A stretch of 18,251 bases of DNA, from the NCBI GenBank assembly GCA_964510585.1, contig CAZECW010000122.1:1-18251 (forward strand). The letters run 5' to 3'. Below are positions 1 to 16,116 of this stretch, piece after piece. The number at the start of each line of letters is the position of its first letter. The stretch's first letter is position 1. The stretch comes from an uncultured archaeon (GTDB lineage Archaea; Asgardarchaeota; Jordiarchaeia; Jordiarchaeales; Jordiarchaeaceae). Position numbers and translations under genes: made by a program. The notes under the pieces are model-generated. The model was not told the DNA's origin and ran no database searches. It saw only the letters and a program-made list of their open reading frames with translations.

Positions 1-575
1 CCTCTGGTAATAAACCTATTAATTTGTTCAGTTATTACCTCCTCCCAAATTTCTCTAACCGACTCCGAATCCATTGAGGCCTTTGCTTCACTTTTCTCAA
101 ATACCTTAACTGCCTTCATGGGGTGAACGTATGGCAGCAAGTAGAATCTCGCCTTCTCACCCCTCTTTGATTGCAGTTCTACATATTCTGGTTTATCAGA
201 TGCGGTGTTTATGAAGGTTTTCGCTCCCTCTGTAAATATTTCTGCTATGGTTGAGAAGAGATCTACAGGAGAGCTTCGCGCCTCATGCCTCGGCAGGTCA
301 TGGTTACCCGCTATCATAACTATTTGAATCCCATTGTCTATTAGTGGTTTGAGTACTTTTGCGAATCTTTTCATCATGGTTGTGGTAGGGTTGGAACTGT
401 GAAAAACATCACCGCAAATCACGAAGAAATCAGCATTATTGCAAACCGCGTACTTCACAACTTGCGAGAGATAGTTTTCACAGAGCAGTGTTATCTCGGG
501 AAGGGATTCCCTAGCATCAATCTTAGAGTGCCGATTTATACCATAATGAACATCCGCCAGGTGAATTATCCTCAT
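1..575 (-). CDS. mre11: Mre11/SbcD-family DNA repair metallo-nuclease, 3'-truncated by the window edge (191 codons visible)
   Basis: Not in the ORF track; manual translation from ATG at 575 gives MRIIHLADVHYG...ICGDVFH...IAGNHD...YLLPY, i.e. phosphoesterase motifs DxH, GDxF and GNHD. Preceded by GAGGAG, 22 nt after the herA stop. No stop before position 1. Confidence 0.93.
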   Translation of the reverse strand, partial: MRIIHLADVHYGINRHSKIDARESLPEITLLCENYLSQVVKYAVCNNADFFVICGDVFHSSNPTTTMMKRFAKVLKPLIDNGIQIVMIAGNHDLPRHEARSSPVDLFSTIAEIFTEGAKTFINTASDKPEYVELQSKRGEKARFYLLPYVHPMKAVKVFEKSEAKASMDSESVREIWEEVITEQINRFITR

Positions 576-580
576 AACCA

Positions 581-587
581 CTCCTCT
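581..587 (-). promoter_or_regulatory. Shine-Dalgarno site of mre11
   Basis: Minus strand reads AGAGGAG-tggtt-ATG (5-nt spacer). Confidence 0.75.
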
Positions 588-597
588 AAACAGAATT

Positions 598-2844
598 TTA
601 TGGCTCCGCAAAGCGTGCCTCTTCCCTATCTAAATCCTCCTCACTTTTTTCACTTGCTAGAACTGATGTTTTTAAATCTTCAAAAAATGTGACCTTTACT
701 GGAAATGGAGTGTCTATCACAATGTTGCTCATCACAGCTTCCCCAGTGTCTCCATGTTGAATGTAGAACTCGTATGGAGTAAAGTCAGTGGGCACCTTTC
801 TCAAAACTTCCTGTCTATCAGTTTCCTGAGGTACCTGAAGAACAGACACGAATCCCGCAGCTTGACTCACAACGAAGGGCTCAACTCCCCGCAGCGACTG
901 GAAAATGTAAAGGTACCCCATACGGTATTTCCGAGCACCGGTAGCCATCTCTGAGAGCCTCTTTATTTCAGGCTCCCCCATCCAAACAAATGATTCCGTC
1001 ATCTCCTCATTAATAAAGTAGAAAAGAGGATAAGAAGAGAATCCCGCCTTATCACTTATGAAAGCCTTCTCTCTCCAGGATTTCACCTGCTCAATAATCA
1101 GTGTTTCAAGCAAGGATCTTTCTTCCTTCTCAAATCTTGAACAATTAATTATTATCCAGTCACCATTATACTGGGCTCTCATAAGCTCATCATAGAGGCT
1201 TCCCTCAACACTCACAGGTTTAAACTGCACCTCTTCCTCATCCCATTCCGCCTGAATAACGTTGCGCAGCGATTTGGCAGACTTCATGGACCTTAAAGCA
1301 GCCTTTATCGTCTCTTTATGATGCGGTGTCCCCTCCAGGAGAGCCTTTGCATTATTTTCGTCGGCTTTAATAAACCAATTAATAGCTTGGAGAGTAACTG
1401 TGTTCAGTTTTTCTTTGCCTGACTCGTCCCTGGGAACTTTAATTTCTTCCCCGGTAACTTCGTTAACCCTCCCCTCTTTGTACAAGGCTCTAAGGAGGTC
1501 CCTTATGACAAATTCAGCCTGTTGAGAACCGGTAATTTTTGTGAAAACCCAGAAGGGAATCCGTTCCACTGGAATCCGGTACTTCTGCTCCTCAAATGGA
1601 TCAACAATTAGCAATCCATTTCCCCCCTCGGTTTTAAAGAGGGGCACTAGTTCTTTGAAGTCCTGGAAGTATTCCCCATGTTTGTCAAGGACCACGCCTC
1701 CCATTCTAAGATGTCTGCCGCGACCACGATTATGCATCAAAGCCCTCAGTAAAAGTACCTCCGCAGTGTTTGTTTTACCCCTCCCACTGAGAGCAATCAT
1801 AGCACCGTTACAGTTCTCCCCCGGCTTGAGTAAAATCCTATAAGGAAAACTTGAGCCATCAGCGTTCATAACTCCTGGAATAACCCCTATCTCCAAAGGA
1901 ATAACGTCACTATCCCTAAATTTGAAGATGGGCTCAATATCTGAGCCGCGAACCATACGAACGGGAGAACCCAGAGTTACCTCCTGCCCAGTTATTACCT
2001 TCTTCCTCCTCTTACCCTTCTCTTCAACCTCAACAATGGTCTTAGATATTCGAGCTTTAAACTCCCATTCTGTTCTCTCAACGATGACCCCGATGTGGGT
2101 GTATCCCTCATAGTCGTCCACAGCCACTAGTGGAGTACTCTTGGTATTTAAAGGCTGAGTGCATAGCACAGTAAATGCATCATTCTCGAAAGAAATCACC
2201 ACCCCCAATTCGTAACGTTTACCCAGAAGCCTGCGCATAATAGACTCCAACTGAAGAGGCGCAACCTCCGTCAACCTAGAACAGTTCACAATAGCACGTG
2301 CCAAATTGTCGGGAACAAAACCATCGATCTCGCTAAAGTATTCCACAAGCAGCCTCGCAATGTTTGCGAAATTGGTCTTACTCTCCCCTATAAGTGAAGT
2401 GAGAGTAGTTAACCAGTCAAAATTATTCACATCAACGAAAGCCTTAAGCTGCTCCTCAGTAGCAGTGTAAACAACAGAATCCAGCCGAAGCAAATCCCGG
2501 GGCTCACTAGGAATAAAACCATTGCTCCACTCACCGATACGCATACCAAAAAAGTAGCGTTCCGAAGTCCTCTCAAGCATACCCTCAAAAAACGCCTTAT
2601 TAAGCGTCGTAACCTTATCACCAAAATCAATAAGAATATTACTTAGTGCAGTAGTGGAAATCTGCTCCTCACTAAAAATAACACCTAGAGAAATTTTACC
2701 GTCCTCAACAATTTGAACAACCTGAGGCAAGCTACGAGTAACCTGCCCACCAACATCAGTCACAGAATAGTAGCTACCAATAAAGAAGTGAAGCCCCACA
2801 GTAGACTTCACAGTTCCAACCGGAGCATTAAACACCACACCCAT
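598..2844 (-). CDS. herA: HerA-family (FtsK/HerA) ATPase/helicase with an extra N-terminal HAS-barrel-like module, 748 aa
   Basis: Walker A ALSGRGKT (aa 351-358), VLDKHGEY motif, Walker B FINEE (aa 610-614), arginine-finger ARKY, IFQ and VVSQ motifs, HAS barrel aa ~208-308. Lies between nurA and mre11. Confidence 0.9.
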   Translation of the reverse strand: MGVVFNAPVGTVKSTVGLHFFIGSYYSVTDVGGQVTRSLPQVVQIVEDGKISLGVIFSEEQISTTALSNILIDFGDKVTTLNKAFFEGMLERTSERYFFGMRIGEWSNGFIPSEPRDLLRLDSVVYTATEEQLKAFVDVNNFDWLTTLTSLIGESKTNFANIARLLVEYFSEIDGFVPDNLARAIVNCSRLTEVAPLQLESIMRRLLGKRYELGVVISFENDAFTVLCTQPLNTKSTPLVAVDDYEGYTHIGVIVERTEWEFKARISKTIVEVEEKGKRRKKVITGQEVTLGSPVRMVRGSDIEPIFKFRDSDVIPLEIGVIPGVMNADGSSFPYRILLKPGENCNGAMIALSGRGKTNTAEVLLLRALMHNRGRGRHLRMGGVVLDKHGEYFQDFKELVPLFKTEGGNGLLIVDPFEEQKYRIPVERIPFWVFTKITGSQQAEFVIRDLLRALYKEGRVNEVTGEEIKVPRDESGKEKLNTVTLQAINWFIKADENNAKALLEGTPHHKETIKAALRSMKSAKSLRNVIQAEWDEEEVQFKPVSVEGSLYDELMRAQYNGDWIIINCSRFEKEERSLLETLIIEQVKSWREKAFISDKAGFSSYPLFYFINEEMTESFVWMGEPEIKRLSEMATGARKYRMGYLYIFQSLRGVEPFVVSQAAGFVSVLQVPQETDRQEVLRKVPTDFTPYEFYIQHGDTGEAVMSNIVIDTPFPVKVTFFEDLKTSVLASEKSEEDLDREEARFAEP

Positions 2845-2860
2845 AACCTTACACCTTACC

Positions 2861-4210
2861 TTAAAACAATCTCTTAGTAAGAATTTTCAGAGAATCCTTA
2901 AAACCAAACTCCAAAGCAATCATCCTAATCAACTCAGCAATCCCAGTATTAATAGTGCAAAGTCTATGCGAAATAGCTAAAACCGCAGGATAATAAGTCG
3001 GCATAATAGTAGACTGCACCAAATAGTGCAAGTAAGCCTCCTCAGGCTGAGCATAAACATACTCAACCCTAGCCCAATCAACAAGATAACCCACATAAAA
3101 AAACTCAATCTGAGTATCAGGATACCACCTACCAAGAGTATCATCATACGGCCTAACTCTCTTATTTATCTCAAAAGCCACAGTACGCTCCTCAACATTC
3201 CCAACTAAACCCTCAACCACCTGAAAATCAATAGTACGATACTCGTGAGAAAGATGCCGAGAAACAATCTCATTAATAACCCTACTTGGCTCAGGAACCC
3301 CACTTGAACGAGCCAAATCAACAGCCAAATCCATATTATCCTCAATCCAGTCCACAACAGTCTCCGCCACCTCATTCGCAGGATTCAAGTAATAACTATA
3401 AGTATGATCCAACAAATTCATAATAGTATCAATAATATCATGAGACTTACTAGAAACCACCACACCAATCAAAGGAGTGTCAAAACGCTTACAACAATCA
3501 AACAGTCTCCTCTGAGCCTCAATCAAACGAGTATAATGAGAACCACGAAAATCCCGAAAATACATGCTGGAAATTGGGCGATCAAAGAATGCTACAGTCC
3601 GTCCCCTCATCGGCTTTAAATGCTTCAGCTCACAATTCTCCTTATGAATGGGGCAACCAAACTGCTCAGACCTACAGTTAAGAGGCTCCCCATGCAACCG
3701 GTGAAGCATACAACGCAGCCCCTGTGTCTCCGCCTCAAACATGTCAACATCCAGAGCCCCCTCAACATTAAGTTTACTGGAAAATCCGCCGTGAAACTTA
3801 ACTGGATTATCTCCCGGTACGTGAACTACGCCCTTAAACCTCACGACACCTCCCTGAGACATGATAAACTTGGAGCCGTCACCGCCCACATACAGTGTAG
3901 GATTGTCTTTACAGTGGGACAAAACCCACTTCGACCTCTCACTCAAGTCAGCAACTGGTTTCTCAGGGTTAAAGTAGGGTGGCTTGCGTGTGGGAGAGGA
4001 AATATCCTCCCGCAAGAGGGCCTTGGAACTGGGCCTATAGTTTTTGAAGGCGTGTGGGAAAATTCTGCGGAGAAGTTCCCCTATTTTTAGTAGTTTCTGG
4101 TTCTGCTTTCTTTCCTCTTCCAAGGACTTTATGATGGAGATTATTTCCTCTTTTAGGAGAGTTGAGACTTTGGTCACCCCCCACTTTTGGGGATAATATA
4201 TTTTTACCAT
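2861..4210 (-). CDS. nurA: NurA-family 5'-3' nuclease (RNase H-like fold), 449 aa; true start may be GTG at 4177
   Basis: YVGGDGS (first catalytic Asp, D111), MFEAE, FFD (second Asp, D210), RVE, YPAVLAISH and C-terminal KR motifs. Ends 16 nt upstream of herA. Confidence 0.85.
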   Translation of the reverse strand: MVKIYYPQKWGVTKVSTLLKEEIISIIKSLEEERKQNQKLLKIGELLRRIFPHAFKNYRPSSKALLREDISSPTRKPPYFNPEKPVADLSERSKWVLSHCKDNPTLYVGGDGSKFIMSQGGVVRFKGVVHVPGDNPVKFHGGFSSKLNVEGALDVDMFEAETQGLRCMLHRLHGEPLNCRSEQFGCPIHKENCELKHLKPMRGRTVAFFDRPISSMYFRDFRGSHYTRLIEAQRRLFDCCKRFDTPLIGVVVSSKSHDIIDTIMNLLDHTYSYYLNPANEVAETVVDWIEDNMDLAVDLARSSGVPEPSRVINEIVSRHLSHEYRTIDFQVVEGLVGNVEERTVAFEINKRVRPYDDTLGRWYPDTQIEFFYVGYLVDWARVEYVYAQPEEAYLHYLVQSTIMPTYYPAVLAISHRLCTINTGIAELIRMIALEFGFKDSLKILTKRLF

Positions 4211-4215
4211 TAAAC

Positions 4216-4224
4216 TTATATAAA
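4216..4224. promoter_or_regulatory. TATA box in the divergent nurA / regulator promoter (possibly bidirectional)
   Basis: TTATATAAA on + and TTTATATAA on - in the short gap between the divergent genes. Confidence 0.6.
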
Positions 4225-4245
4225 TGTTACGCTAAATATTACACA

Positions 4246-4264
4246 GTTACATAAAAATTGTAAC
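4246..4264. promoter_or_regulatory. Candidate operator: inverted repeat GTTACA-N7-TGTAAC
   Basis: Perfect 6-bp arms at 4246-4251 and 4259-4264. Related half-sites GTTACG (4226-4231) and ATTACA (4238-4243). Confidence 0.55.
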
Positions 4265-4286
4265 CATTTTAGGTTTGGCGAAACCA

Positions 4287-4964
4287 ATGAAAACCATAGT
4301 AGACTGGCTAGTATTACCAGTAAACCCAGACACATCAATAAGAGACCACTTCATAAGCAACGAGTATTTCCCCGCACACCATTGGCTAATAATATACAAT
4401 CCAAAAGATCCTAAAAACAGTAGCGCCTGCCAGCAAATCCGAGAAATCCTGGAAACCGCAAGAATATCAAAATATGAAACCCTAGAAGCCAACCCCGAAA
4501 ACTACTACGACGTACTATTCAGCTTCGACCAGTGGCTCCAAGAAAAAAAACTTGAACAAAACACAACCATCGCAGTAAACGGAGCCACAAACGCCATACC
4601 TGCCATAAACGCAGTAAGAGACACACTCTCAAGAAGGCAATACAACGGATTCATATTCTCATTCAAAAAAAAGGACGGCATAATCTACGGAGAACCACAA
4701 ATAACCCCACTAAACACCAACACACTAACAGAAGACCACTTCAAAATAATAAAAACACTCCTAAAACTAAACGGAAAAGCCCAAAGCCAAAAAGAACTAC
4801 TAGAACACCTCACACAAACCGACGAAAAATACAGCAAATACAAAAACGACCTAAACACCGGAAAAAGAGTACTATCCTACTACCTAAGACAACTAAAAAA
4901 ACTAAACATCATAAAAATAGAACACGAAAAAAACGAAAGACAAACAACAATAACACTAACATAA
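4287..4964 (+). CDS. CARF-like (Csa3/DUF6293-like) Rossmann domain plus C-terminal winged-helix transcriptional regulator; ATG 4287 preferred over TTG 4275
   Basis: N-terminal hhLPV...R, NPENYYDV and IAVNGAT segments resemble DUF6293/Csa3-type sensor domains. C-terminal SQKELLEHL...VLSYYLRQLKKLNII...TITLT has wHTH form. Confidence 0.65.
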   Translation: MKTIVDWLVLPVNPDTSIRDHFISNEYFPAHHWLIIYNPKDPKNSSACQQIREILETARISKYETLEANPENYYDVLFSFDQWLQEKKLEQNTTIAVNGATNAIPAINAVRDTLSRRQYNGFIFSFKKKDGIIYGEPQITPLNTNTLTEDHFKIIKTLLKLNGKAQSQKELLEHLTQTDEKYSKYKNDLNTGKRVLSYYLRQLKKLNIIKIEHEKNERQTTITLT

Positions 4965-5653: not shown

Positions 5654-7132
5654 CTATAAGCGGAATTTTCCAGGGCTTAGTATTCTATTAGGGTCAAGGG
5701 CATTCTTTACGGATTTTAGAAATTCAAAGTAGGTGCCTGTGAGTGTTCCTGTATCGATTAGTGCACGGCTCATTATTTCTCCAGGATTTATTGGCATCAC
5801 ACCCTCCTTGAGCATGAACTGGACTTGGCTTTCCCACAATCTTCTATTCAGCTCTCTGAGCTCTGGCCTATCCCAAACTAATAGACCAGCATCTACTACA
5901 GCTGTAGTGTGAGAACAGAGGAATGCATTTGAAACTCCTGTTATGGCTCTAGCCTTAGCAAGTTCCTCTCCATATGCCTCTCCCCACTCGTCCACTTTTT
6001 TAAAAATGTACGGGAATCGGTGAATAGGAATGTGGAAGTCGACACTACATGGAACGGATCCTGGACCGAGGCCACCCCATAGACCGTGCCAATTCAGCCA
6101 GTGACCCTGTTCCTCATAGTGCCATTTTGCATAGTTTCCATCCTTAATTTCTGGGCCCAGTTCTTCTCCACCATACTTCTTAATTGTTTTATCCAAAATT
6201 TTCACATTCACCTCTAATTCTTCCGGCGTCTCAGCCTCCATCGTATACCAAAAGATGGCCCTATCTATACCCTTCCAAGGTTTAAAAATTATGGTCTCTG
6301 CTAATCCTCCTGTCATTCCCAGCACCATTAGTTGTGGGAGATAAAAAGAATCGTATATTCCAAGCTCCCCTCTTTTCCTCCAATCCAACCAGATTTTGGT
6401 CGTGTTTTCGGTTGAGGGTTCCTCCAGTGTAAAAGTTTTACATTCATGATATTCTGGCTTTGGATAAATCTTGAGAGTGGCCTTGGTTTTTATTCCCATT
6501 ATTCCAGCATCACCTAGGAATAAACCTGTAAGATCCGGCCCGAACCCAAATCTACAGAATGGTTCCTTTGTATATAAGCCAGCATTAGATCCCGTGTAAA
6601 TTATGTTTCCATTTGGGAGTACAACTTCCAGAGCCACACACTGTTCGTTGCAAGTACCATATTTTGCCGCTCCGCCACCACCCATAGAGTTGTTTGATAG
6701 TCCACCTCCAATGGTGGCAGACATTCCACTTCCTGGACCAAGGTTCCCAGTGTAGTATCCCATTTCACTGAGTTTCATATTCAACTGAGCCCAAGTTATA
6801 CCTGTTTCTACTGTAACCGTGAGGGTATTTTCGTTTATATCTAGAATTTTATTCATTCTAAGCATGTCCAGGACTATTCCACCACTCTCAATGGGTTTTG
6901 AGCCACCTACTAAATCGCAGCCACCACCGCGTGGAACTATGGGAATCTTATACCTATTAGCAACTTGCACTACTTCAGCCACTTCCTCCGTGTTTCCCGG
7001 CTTTACCACAAATTCTGGCAACCTCTCAAGCGCCCCATCAACAACTCTAGAGTAGGAGTAAAGGACAAAATCCTCATCCGAAACATATTCGGAACCCACA
7101 GCATCCACTAAAGCCCTAAACACTTTACTCAT
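5654..7132 (-). CDS. FAD-linked oxidoreductase, FAD-binding PCMH / GlcD-alkylglycerone-phosphate-synthase-like superfamily, 492 aa
   Basis: PRGGG, ATIGG, LEVVLPNG, GPDLTGLFLGDAG.MGI and C-terminal LDPNRILSPGK motifs. Confidence 0.9.
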   Translation of the reverse strand: MSKVFRALVDAVGSEYVSDEDFVLYSYSRVVDGALERLPEFVVKPGNTEEVAEVVQVANRYKIPIVPRGGGCDLVGGSKPIESGGIVLDMLRMNKILDINENTLTVTVETGITWAQLNMKLSEMGYYTGNLGPGSGMSATIGGGLSNNSMGGGGAAKYGTCNEQCVALEVVLPNGNIIYTGSNAGLYTKEPFCRFGFGPDLTGLFLGDAGIMGIKTKATLKIYPKPEYHECKTFTLEEPSTENTTKIWLDWRKRGELGIYDSFYLPQLMVLGMTGGLAETIIFKPWKGIDRAIFWYTMEAETPEELEVNVKILDKTIKKYGGEELGPEIKDGNYAKWHYEEQGHWLNWHGLWGGLGPGSVPCSVDFHIPIHRFPYIFKKVDEWGEAYGEELAKARAITGVSNAFLCSHTTAVVDAGLLVWDRPELRELNRRLWESQVQFMLKEGVMPINPGEIMSRALIDTGTLTGTYFEFLKSVKNALDPNRILSPGKFRL

Positions 7133-14731: not shown

Positions 14732-15412
14732 TTATGAGGAGTACGCCACCAGGTACGTGTCACCGTCATCAGCTAATTCTTGGGGTGCTACATTGTATCC
14801 GTACTTCCAACTCCATCCGGGGTTTTGGTCGATGTCGGGTCCGCCCACCGCCTTATATGCGGCCCACACAAGTTCGCTGCAATAGTAGCTGTTGCCCTCA
14901 ACTTGTTTGCCTCCTATATAGGTGAGCCAAATGTAATCGTAGGGTAGTCCCACTTTTGTCAGGGCCCAGTTCACAGCCTGCTGCTTTATGGAGCTTGAGG
15001 TGCTTACTCGATAAATGGCTGCGTCGTTAGCATTGTGAATCATGCTGATATCCACAACTCTCACACCGTTTTTCCAAGCTTCAATCATTTTGCCATTTCC
15101 AATATACATAGCGGCGTGTGAGTAGTGCCCCGGCATTGACTTGTCACCAACAAATACTCCCGAGACAAGAATTATGTCCCCCACCTGTAGCTTACTGAGG
15201 TCAAGATTGTTTCCATCGCCTCCCCAAGTGTCGCCTACCAGCTTCGAATCAAGGGTTCCCCCGTTGTTTATACCGCTATTTATGGCGGCAAGTGCAATTA
15301 GCCCAGTAAGATTACCGTTGCTCCCGCTTAAAGTCGCAGCTAGACCAGCTGAAAGCAACATAGACATTGCGAACAGCGAAATGCAGAAAATAGAAAAGCC
15401 CTTCCTTCTCAT
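14732..15412 (-). CDS. Secreted permuted papain-like NlpC/P60 cysteine hydrolase (YiiX/YebB/YycO-like); ATG 15412 preferred
   Basis: Signal-peptide-like MRRKGFSIFCISLFAMSMLLSAGLAA. GDIIL, HAAMYIG (His), PYDY and YCSELVWAAY (Cys) occur in the permuted His-before-Cys order. Confidence 0.85.
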   Translation of the reverse strand: MRRKGFSIFCISLFAMSMLLSAGLAATLSGSNGNLTGLIALAAINSGINNGGTLDSKLVGDTWGGDGNNLDLSKLQVGDIILVSGVFVGDKSMPGHYSHAAMYIGNGKMIEAWKNGVRVVDISMIHNANDAAIYRVSTSSSIKQQAVNWALTKVGLPYDYIWLTYIGGKQVEGNSYYCSELVWAAYKAVGGPDIDQNPGWSWKYGYNVAPQELADDGDTYLVAYSS

Positions 15413-16116
15413 GGTATATTTCTCCACACATTTTTGAAAATTTAATCTTATTCTCCTCTTATTTAAATTTTTTGTAAAAGAGGAGTATAACGCATTTATT
15501 ATAGCTTTTAGAGGATTATAAGGGGTGGTTTTACATAAAGTTTGATATTATTACCAGAATTATGGAAATAATCCCTATTAACCGTATTTCGGGGTAAAAA
15601 TTTTGAAGAGTATTAAATTATTATGGCTGACCTTCGTTTCCCACTTCCTTGTACCCCGACAAACATTTTCCAAGCAGAGATGTTAAAGAAGAGAAACGCG
15701 CCCAAACCTTCACAGCAGCAGCCTCCTAAAACTAGAATTGATATTAAAAATATGACCCCCTCAATCAAAAAATGTAAAGCATACAAATCCTAATCTAAAA
15801 AGTACATATTAGAATATCTGGAGCCGCTTATATCCAATTCAGCAAGCATATATATACAGTCCATGTATTGAGGAGTTTCGTCCATTCCTCTTACTTGGTT
15901 CTGGGGTAGAAAAGAAGAGTTAAATTCGTAATGTTAAAACTAGTGTTTGCGGAATGGTTTTGTTCGACTCAAGATCCTTCTTTGGGGTATTTTAAGCGAT
16001 TGTGTTTAAATCCGGTGATGGAAGGGGAAAAAATCGTTTAAGGTAAGTGTTGGTAGAAATAATTAAGTCAGTTTCCTTGTTTGAAACATGCTTCACTTAG
16101 CTGTGCTTGACGCCTT

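Follow-up and report, generated by a model that had tools for sequence, protein, structure and literature searches.

An accessory NurA-HerA-Mre11-Rad50 operon facing a CARF-fold regulator in a Jordarchaeial Asgard archaeon, and its possible links to defence and CRISPR adaptation

Why should an archaeon that possesses a canonical set of DNA end-resection enzymes also encode another, highly divergent one, placed head-to-head with the gene for a sensor-type regulator? This question is raised by the first 5 kb of a stretch of 18,251 nucleotides (hereinafter, the window) that forms the start of contig C122 (CAZECW010000122.1) in a 3.78-Mb, 96%-complete metagenome-assembled genome of an uncultured Jordarchaeial Asgard archaeon (GCA_964510585.1), where a regulator gene faces the genes nurA*, herA* and mre11 (the asterisk denotes the window-type family). 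As described below, these genes belong to an accessory, dispensable, complete second resection-type operon, and the family is linked to cas1-cas2-cas4 operons and defence neighbourhoods in other lineages. The interpretation that we favour, and to which we assign a probability of roughly one half, is that of an accessory, regulator-gated end-processing operon that degrades foreign or linear DNA and/or supplies fragments for spacer acquisition, rather than taking part in routine repair.

In a preliminary description made from the letters of the window, nurA, herA and mre11 were said to be co-directional and separated by 16 and 22 nt, with rad50/sbcC predicted beyond position 1. The open reading frames (ORFs) indeed sit where claimed, with gaps of 16 nt between nurA* and herA* (2845-2860) and 22 nt between herA* and mre11 (576-597, using ATG 575), and the contig end is continued by the rest of mre11 and then a Zn-hook rad50. 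In this assembly, the rest of the operon sits on contig C191 (mre11 remainder, G000:C191:1-969). The operon is whole, including the mre11 remainder, on L014, a 31-kb Joint Genome Institute (JGI) contig with the same DNA, which encodes NurA*, HerA*, Mre11 (425 aa) and Rad50 (847 aa), together with a HEAT-repeat protein of 181 aa, and it was also seen whole in L031, a 78%-identical orthologous locus. Near-identical DNA is present in hot-spring metagenomes from several studies; the sequencing runs with matching DNA include no RNA run, the DNA runs being hot-spring metagenomes. The homologues carry the name Candidatus Freyarchaeota, and Ca. Jordarchaeum madagascariense is a genome of the same genus.

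Is this the housekeeping set? A search of the genome for a second, more canonical set located one on contig C118 (C118:29333-36296), with nurA and herA recognized by Pfam (E 1.5e-10 and 2.2e-26, respectively), an archaeal-type Mre11 whose best relatives are the enzymes of P. furiosus and M. jannaschii, and a Rad50 of 676 aa whose hook reads CPTC (CxxC); between nurA and herA of this set lies about 1 kb of low-complexity non-coding DNA. The phyletic patterns of the two sets differ sharply: every genome of the genus (6/6) encodes the C118-type Mre11, with identities of 78-94%, whereas the window-type Mre11 and NurA* occur together, in the same 3/6 genomes, and neither the closed, 100%-complete genome G117 nor G119, G120 or the sister family has the window-type set. 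The operon is thus accessory and separate from the housekeeping copy, as had been suggested, and the patchy distribution that was to be checked extends beyond the genus: a strong NurA* match is encoded in 5/400 genomes of the phylum, close homologues of NurA* number 8 among 5.8 billion proteins, and the NurA*/HerA* family has 12 representatives among 1.84 billion proteins, the named members of the NurA* family coming from Freyarchaeota, Hodarchaeota and Hydrothermarchaeales. A search with an alignment of four NurA* sequences retrieved only Ca. Jordarchaeum madagascariense from genome contigs and nothing from metagenome and viral contigs. The genome further encodes NurA-HerA pairs at C137:1767-4563, C114:24382-27194 and C195:12925-16687, and a lone HerA on C130; the proteins of the C195 pair are unusually long (644 and 623 aa).

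The features of the locus are collected in Table 1.

Table 1. Coordinates of the window-type operon, its regulator and their shared promoter (window positions unless a contig is named)
Feature	Position	Strand	Remarks
Window-type rad50, 847 aa, outside the window	C191:969-3512		Rad50_zn_hook 24.9 vs cut-off 24.3
SbcD-like mre11, first 191 codons (full length 425 aa), cut by the contig end	3..575	-	Metallophos E 2.9e-12; TIGR00619 sbcD
herA*, HerA-family ATPase, 748 aa, with N-terminal extension of ~200 aa	598..2844	-	DUF87
HerA* residues 1-308: predicted extra HAS-like barrel (~6-127), helical bundle (130-210), regular HAS barrel (211-308)	1921..2844	-	AlphaFold2 (AF2) model
nurA*, very divergent NurA-like, 438 aa from the conserved GTG 4177	2861..4177	-	longest ORF from ATG 4210
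NurA* Cys/His-rich insert, residues 167-197 (P0001 numbering), between the conserved Glu and the DRP motif	3620..3712	-
Divergent promoter region nurA*/regulator	4178..4286	.	83% mean column identity, four orthologous loci
Palindromic operator candidate GTTACA-N7-TGTAAC	4246..4264	.	extra GTTAC half-site 4226-4230
Csa3/HFX_2341-like regulator, 225 aa (225-229 by start): CARF-fold Rossmannoid N-domain and C-terminal winged helix	4287..4964	+	long ORF from 4275

The most divergent of the four enzymes is NurA*, which has no direct match in Pfam, NCBIfam or PADLOC and was missed by the genome-wide search for NurA. Its assignment comes from other directions. In the ESM Atlas, the feature score is 0.93, with 202 shared features, and 100/100 neighbours are NurA; the Atlas structure aligns with the NurA cluster over 324 residues, with template modelling (TM) scores of 0.63 (query) and 0.76 (target), the next structure matches being Piwi and RNase H. 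A profile of the family connects to P0020 (E 1.4e-25), which in turn matches PF09376 with 31.1 bits (cut-off 21); PF09376 is also matched by 4/10 members of the NurA* family, none of which matches another family. Because of the Atlas searches, the profile chain through P0020 and these four PF09376 matches, NurA* can be regarded as a homolog of the NurA family with a predicted RNase H-like NurA fold. Comparison of NurA* with the four canonical NurA paralogues of this genome by hhalign gave a weak match, of 9.6% probability and limited to the C-terminal motif, and the NurA* profile found nothing meaningful among the PDB sequences; an AF2 model built with six close homologues was unusable, with a predicted local distance difference test (pLDDT) score of 33, and was set aside. 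Candidates for the Asp, Glu, Asp and C-terminal His expected in a NurA active site are E161 and D210, which do not vary within the family, together with D111 and H415, each kept by at least 90% of the sequences. The first of the two unusual additions noted in the preliminary description, the Cys cluster of NurA*, is real: at least 90% of 10 members retain C167, C179 and C193, and C186 does not vary in the four-sequence alignment, so that this pattern suggests a metal-binding insert. Consistent with the C118 copy and the three further pairs of this genome, a review counts four annotated NurAs for Freyarchaeum (PMC13748450), and NurA* would be a fifth, missing from the annotation.

The second addition, in HerA*, is also real, and the label '(HAS+herA)' under which it had been described proved correct. 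The protein combines a HAS barrel and a RecA-like ATPase with a nurA* gene ending 16 nt upstream of its own gene, as befits a HerA. The DUF87 match (35.4 bits against a gathering cut-off of 23.2) covers residues 349-496 only, that is, the ATPase core, and the Walker A motif GRGKT (K357), E613 and Q649 are invariant in the HerA* family and in canonical HerA. What is distinctive is the N-terminal extension, which is present in every HerA* relative; in an AF2 model of residues 1-345 (pLDDT 74, predicted TM score 0.71) and in the structural matches of this region, the HAS barrel is duplicated. Residues 211-308 align with HerA chains 9c1m_M (VIA-align Z 12.0) and 4d2i_B (Z 10.6), residues 6-176 align with residues 3-177 of TdpA (8wet_A, Z 10.4), and the first barrel with the helices aligns with the N-terminus of T. 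kodakarensis HerA (Z 9.2); Foldseek searches with the N-terminal region retrieved HerA chains exclusively, and a sequence search with the same region among 5.8 billion proteins returned close orthologues only.

The remaining two enzymes are of bacterial type or close to it. The full-length window-type Mre11 scores 98.4 bits against TIGR00619 (cut-off 77.65), which places it in the SbcD subfamily, and the phosphoesterase motifs DxH, GD, GNHD, GH and GHxH are all kept; among proteins of solved structure, the closest to it are bacterial SbcD and T. maritima Mre11, with which it aligns over residues 1-296, whereas the alignment with archaeal Mre11 structures is limited to the first 100-120 residues. 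In the window-type Rad50, Walker A is at 33, the CPVC hook at 432, SGGE at 756 and Walker B at 785. Judging by their sequences, the catalytic motifs appear intact in all four enzymes.

What controls this operon? The regulator is labelled here as Csa3/HFX_2341-like, and not as a member of Csa3. Its Atlas model (pLDDT 0.79) matches the HFX_2341_N/Csa3_N plus winged helix-turn-helix (wHTH) clusters at TM 0.56-0.64 over residues 5-225, the PADLOC profile CARF3 detects it at E 1e-5, and one close orthologue carries a precomputed hit to PF22662. A loop, (I/V)N-x-(A/S)-(T/S)-(N/G)-x-x-P, is common to the window regulator and those of the distant loci L051, L032 and L058, and the family is represented by a single copy in this genome. 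A 235-aa gene beside the L031 regulator was considered as a regulator paralogue and rejected; it has a weak Prok-JAB match and no tblastn match.

The divergent promoter had been put at about 70 bp. The longest ORFs leave 64 nt, and the likely starts, GTG 4177 and ATG 4287, leave 109 nt; these starts are preferred because the orthologue alignment shows that ATG 4210, from which NurA* would have 449 aa, is not conserved, the orthologues having ACG at this position. The likely nurA* start, GTG 4177, is preceded by a run of G. Within this region, a TATA-like TTATATAAA at 4216-4224 is conserved across the four orthologous loci, and the inverted repeat that had been noted was confirmed as the palindrome of Table 1, which occurs once in the 3.78-Mb genome, against an expectation of about 0.37 occurrences over the whole genome for each spacer length. 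Among the four orthologous loci, the arms do not vary but the spacer does. The palindrome lies about 32 nt upstream of the regulator ATG and is also upstream of the nurA* TATA box, a position that would fit autoregulation together with control of the operon by the regulator. The intergenic palindromes of the distant relatives are AT-rich and uninformative.

An unusual compositional feature coincides with this part of the locus. The third codon positions between 2500 and 5000 of the window display a strong, strand-bound amino/keto skew: 92% are A or C in the regulator gene, and 76% are G or T in nurA*, each on its own strand. The skew fades through herA* (66%), mre11 (52%) and then rad50. The same skew is seen in L031 (L031:4228-7092), with 86% A/C in the regulator gene and 72% G/T in nurA*, and it is missing in the distant relatives L032 and L051. 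The skew in the regulator gene contradicts simple transcription-coupled deamination.

Do the regulator and the operon belong together beyond this genome? In the orthologous loci with 78-88% identity (L031, G118, G121), the regulator and the operon are kept together while the outer flanks differ. At about 26% NurA identity, the module recurs in three further loci. In L032, a 250-aa gene diverges from NurA*-HerA*(818 aa)-Metallophos-SMC, adjoining JetC/JetD (Wadjet) and a PLD gene; in L051, a 240-aa gene diverges from NurA*-HerA*-Metallophos-SMC, adjoining a prokaryotic Argonaute (pAgo) gene, with UvrD, PLD-SNF2 and TIR genes nearby; and in L058, from Hodarchaeota, a 232-aa gene diverges from NurA*-HerA*. 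The divergent genes in all three encode regulator homologues: a profile built from the Freyarchaeota regulators alone has matches in L051 (E 1e-11) and L058 (E 7e-5), and a profile including L032 and L051 reaches the L058 protein at E 1e-20. On the strength of the profile matches in L051 and L058, a homologous divergent regulator can be said to accompany NurA*/HerA* in at least four deep lineages, as a conserved partner; the check for a conserved divergent CARF-wHTH neighbour thus came out positively. In L051 (L051:6879-9903), the gene for the 240-aa regulator homologue runs 17 nt into the start of the 772-aa pAgo gene, which has the same orientation, so one CARF-fold/wHTH protein may serve both pAgo and the divergent NurA*-HerA*-SbcCD-like operon.

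An intriguing connection is provided by a sister branch of the family (L052, L053, G043/G044), in which a wHTH gene of 196-227 aa diverges from NurA*-HerA*-DUF2797-Cas1-Cas2-Cas4 (L052:10001-17161; L053:927-7746; L047, that is, G043:C79, 210-5925). This cas1-linked arrangement is found in two lineages, the regulator proteins of L052 and G043 being identical. Genes for cas7, cas5 and a cas8-like protein lie upstream in L052, and no tandem or CRISPR-like repeats were found in L052 and L053. A literature search yielded no description of DUF2797 as a cas-linked gene. In a Hydrothermarchaeales locus, NurA*-HerA* is followed by unrelated genes. The genome under study, for its part, encodes Cas1, on a contig other than that of the window locus, and Cas10-like proteins.

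Given a sister branch embedded in cas1-cas2-cas4 operons, and SbcCD-linked relatives with Wadjet or pAgo as neighbours, we consider the degradation of foreign or linear DNA and/or the supply of spacer precursors to be the most likely role of the operon. In functional terms, a simple scheme could be envisaged. A dimer of the CARF-fold/wHTH regulator would occupy the single GTTACA-N7-TGTAAC site, which covers the core promoter of the regulator gene and lies just ahead of the TATA box of nurA*; a small molecule bound by the Rossmannoid domain would alter this occupancy and switch the operon, a cyclic oligoadenylate from the Cas10-type proteins of the genome being the obvious, if unproven, candidate for the signal. 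The SbcCD-like Mre11-Rad50 would then recognize and open DNA ends, and a HerA* hexamer with a double HAS-barrel collar would feed the DNA to a NurA* dimer, with its Cys4 insert, to be degraded. We infer, in other words, ligand gating, operator binding, and either the destruction of foreign DNA or the feeding of adaptation.

Several observations weigh against this interpretation. The regulator scores 21.1 bits against Csa3_N, for which the cut-off is 27, and its profile finds no relative among the PDB sequences; because of these two results, ligand sensing is predicted at the level of the fold, and the CARF-wHTH regulator originally proposed opposite nurA stands as a Rossmannoid domain with a wHTH but falls short of the Csa3_N threshold. 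A 53%-identical regulator paralogue, P0017 (L030:7759-11511), resides in another context, away from nurA*, and therefore the regulator family is not exclusive to NurA*; the P0017 gene is preceded by a gene for an Upf1-like superfamily 1 helicase and followed by a GATase_4 gene, with genes for a 1585-aa TPR protein and a HEPN_Swt1 protein nearby. The wHTH protein of the sister branch, while matched in size and position, shows no detectable sequence similarity to the window regulator. The order with nurA first, which had been taken as atypical, is shared by the C118 set. The local neighbours are metabolic genes (flavin adenine dinucleotide (FAD) oxidase, enoyl-CoA hydratase, MFS, 3HCDH), and there is no cas or defence gene in the window and the 31-kb JGI contig; the expected defence-island context is thus seen in the relatives beside Wadjet, pAgo or cas genes but not in the locus itself. 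Searches against PADLOC-DB 2.0 gave weak matches to HerA (E 4.7e-5) and mad8 (6.1e-5) and to generic phosphoesterases, none for NurA*, and no match to a system. Finally, within the genus, the divergence of the accessory genes tracks the divergence of the species, and vertical descent with loss fits the pattern in the genus as well as mobility does.

The principal competing explanation, which we regard as possible if rather doubtful, is an accessory double-strand-break repair module that stress such as DNA damage or heat would induce and that would take no part in defence or CRISPR adaptation. All four enzymes come from classical end-resection families and appear to keep their catalytic motifs, and the metabolic neighbourhood and the lack of a PADLOC system match are what such a module would show; with five NurA-HerA pairs in the genome, paralogue expansion is a trait of the lineage (PMC13748450), and Csa3a is reported also to control DNA-damage repair genes (PMC7515695). 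This explanation sits uneasily, however, with the embedding of the sister branch in cas1-cas2-cas4 operons and the relatives that abut Wadjet and pAgo, with the absence of the module from half of the genus, including a closed genome, and with an extreme rarity and a patchiness across Jordarchaeia, Hodarchaeota, another Asgard family and Hydrothermarchaeales that are unusual for a repair system.

Could the operon instead be the cargo of a mobile element or a variable island, for instance an integrated plasmid, serving the replication, recombination or competition of that element? This we consider unlikely. The flanks do differ between the orthologous loci L014 and L031, and PIN and MazE-like genes lie nearby on C191. 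The FAD-linked oxidase next to the operon (window 5654-7132) and a 350-aa MazE-domain protein (L025:6466-7518) have best matches in the sister species at 67-70% identity, compared with 91-94% for the core Mre11 of the same species; the whole region may be a variable part of the genome. Yet the 31-kb contig showed no gene for an integrase, a transposase, replication or conjugation, the viral contig collection yielded no relatives, and the identities within the genus follow the species order. An empty site was sought in the sister genomes and was not found, the flanking FAD oxidase and MazE-like genes being members of multi-copy families. The converse assignment, with the window set as the main housekeeping set and the C118 set as the specialized one, could be defended by the full-length window-type Rad50 (847 aa, with a Pfam Zn-hook match) next to the short C118 Rad50 (676 aa), but is contradicted by the phyletic pattern, the C118 set with its archaeal-type Mre11 and CPTC hook being universal in the genus and the window-type set missing from G117, G119, G120 and the sister family, and is accordingly very improbable.

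How does an end-processing operon of the kind that we favour relate to what is already known? The designation 'new system' was overstated, given that control by Csa3a and CRISPR-associated NurA-HerA pairs are both published (PMC5587795; PMC3396285; PMC3973734). Liu et al. 2017 (PMC5587795) reported binding of S. islandicus Csa3a to two promoters, that of nurA-mre11-rad50-herA and that of nurA-herA, and resection has been proposed to be coupled to spacer acquisition in this organism (PMC5587795); Csa3 is also reported to bind cA4 (PMC8699464). Common to Sulfolobus and the window is a CARF plus winged-helix regulator linked to NurA/HerA/Mre11/Rad50 promoters, a link that is predicted in the case of the window. 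The difference is that, the Sulfolobus regulator is a product of the cas locus that reaches the housekeeping operon in trans, whereas the window has a dedicated, cis-encoded regulator, with predicted binding, for an accessory and highly divergent set.

Descriptions of CRISPR-associated NurA-HerA pairs with a linked CARF protein go back to 2012 (PMC3396285; PMC3973734), and such pairs are listed among CRISPR auxiliary genes (PMC10910872). Among the papers searched, a single one brings CARF, NurA, HerA and Mre11 together, and its subject is Csa3b. The nurA-csm6-herA loci of Thermoproteales (Bernick 2012, PMC3396285) and the 'Cas HerA/Cas NurA' (Vestergaard 2014, PMC3973734) are, like the window pair, paralogous pairs apart from the repair copy; they are linked to a CARF protein and cas genes, with a proposed role in adaptation. 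The sister branch resembles them in lying directly upstream of cas1-cas2-cas4, and adjacency to a cas cassette or array, which defines 'Cas NurA/HerA', is indeed seen at L052, L053 and G043. The window locus, in contrast, lacks cas genes and arrays, has a predicted transcription factor as its CARF-fold protein instead of Csm6, and adds an SbcCD-like Mre11-Rad50, a HEAT gene, the duplicated HAS barrel and the NurA Cys cluster. With the canonical archaeal herA-mre11-rad50-nurA operon it shares the combination of four enzyme families in one presumably co-transcribed set, but Mre11 is of the bacterial SbcD-like kind, Pfam does not recognize NurA* directly, HerA* is longer by about 230 aa, and the set is accessory. 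The HerA-based defence systems SIR2-HerA (8sub, 8j4u), DUF4297-HerA (8zir, 9c1m) and TdpAB (8wet) combine a HerA hexamer bearing a HAS-barrel collar with a nuclease or NADase effector, and their structures are the best matches of the HerA* N-terminal region; the window differs in that the effector is NurA-like and Mre11-Rad50 is added, and the PADLOC models match weakly or not at all.

New here, then, are a family with a double HAS barrel and a NurA Cys cluster, the joining of NurA*-HerA* to a bacterial-type SbcCD pair and a HEAT gene, the sister relation to a branch embedded with Cas1-Cas2-Cas4, and the occurrence in Asgard archaea. For prespacer generation in archaea that lack RecBCD, and for a role of HerA-NurA in immunity, the data so far come mainly from trans-regulation in Sulfolobus; in the present family, the components are physically linked and could serve as a test case, given that the regulator is of sensor type and dedicated, the HerA-NurA pair is structurally distinctive, and the partners are either SbcCD-like proteins or Cas1-Cas2-Cas4. 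Even if the operon turns out to provide only inducible repair, it would cleanly illustrate how a CARF-fold regulator can be wired in cis away from CRISPR loci, and a fifth NurA missed by annotation in a Jordarchaeial Asgard genome bears on surveys of Asgard repair genes (PMC13748450). A bolder and decidedly tentative proposal is that the regulator-NurA*-HerA* trio is the core of an undescribed archaeal toolkit for defence and adaptation, a ligand-gated, double-collared shredder that would combine in modular fashion either with SbcCD-like openers, for the stand-alone destruction of linear DNA of invaders, or with DUF2797-Cas1-Cas2-Cas4, as a prespacer factory. If true, such a toolkit would be a one-unit archaeal counterpart of the RecBCD-fed CRISPR adaptation.

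Farther from the operon, positions 14732-15427 of the window, on the minus strand, encode a 231-aa permuted papain-like amidase with matches to Peptidase_C92 (E 8e-18) and NlpC/P60 (E 4e-8).

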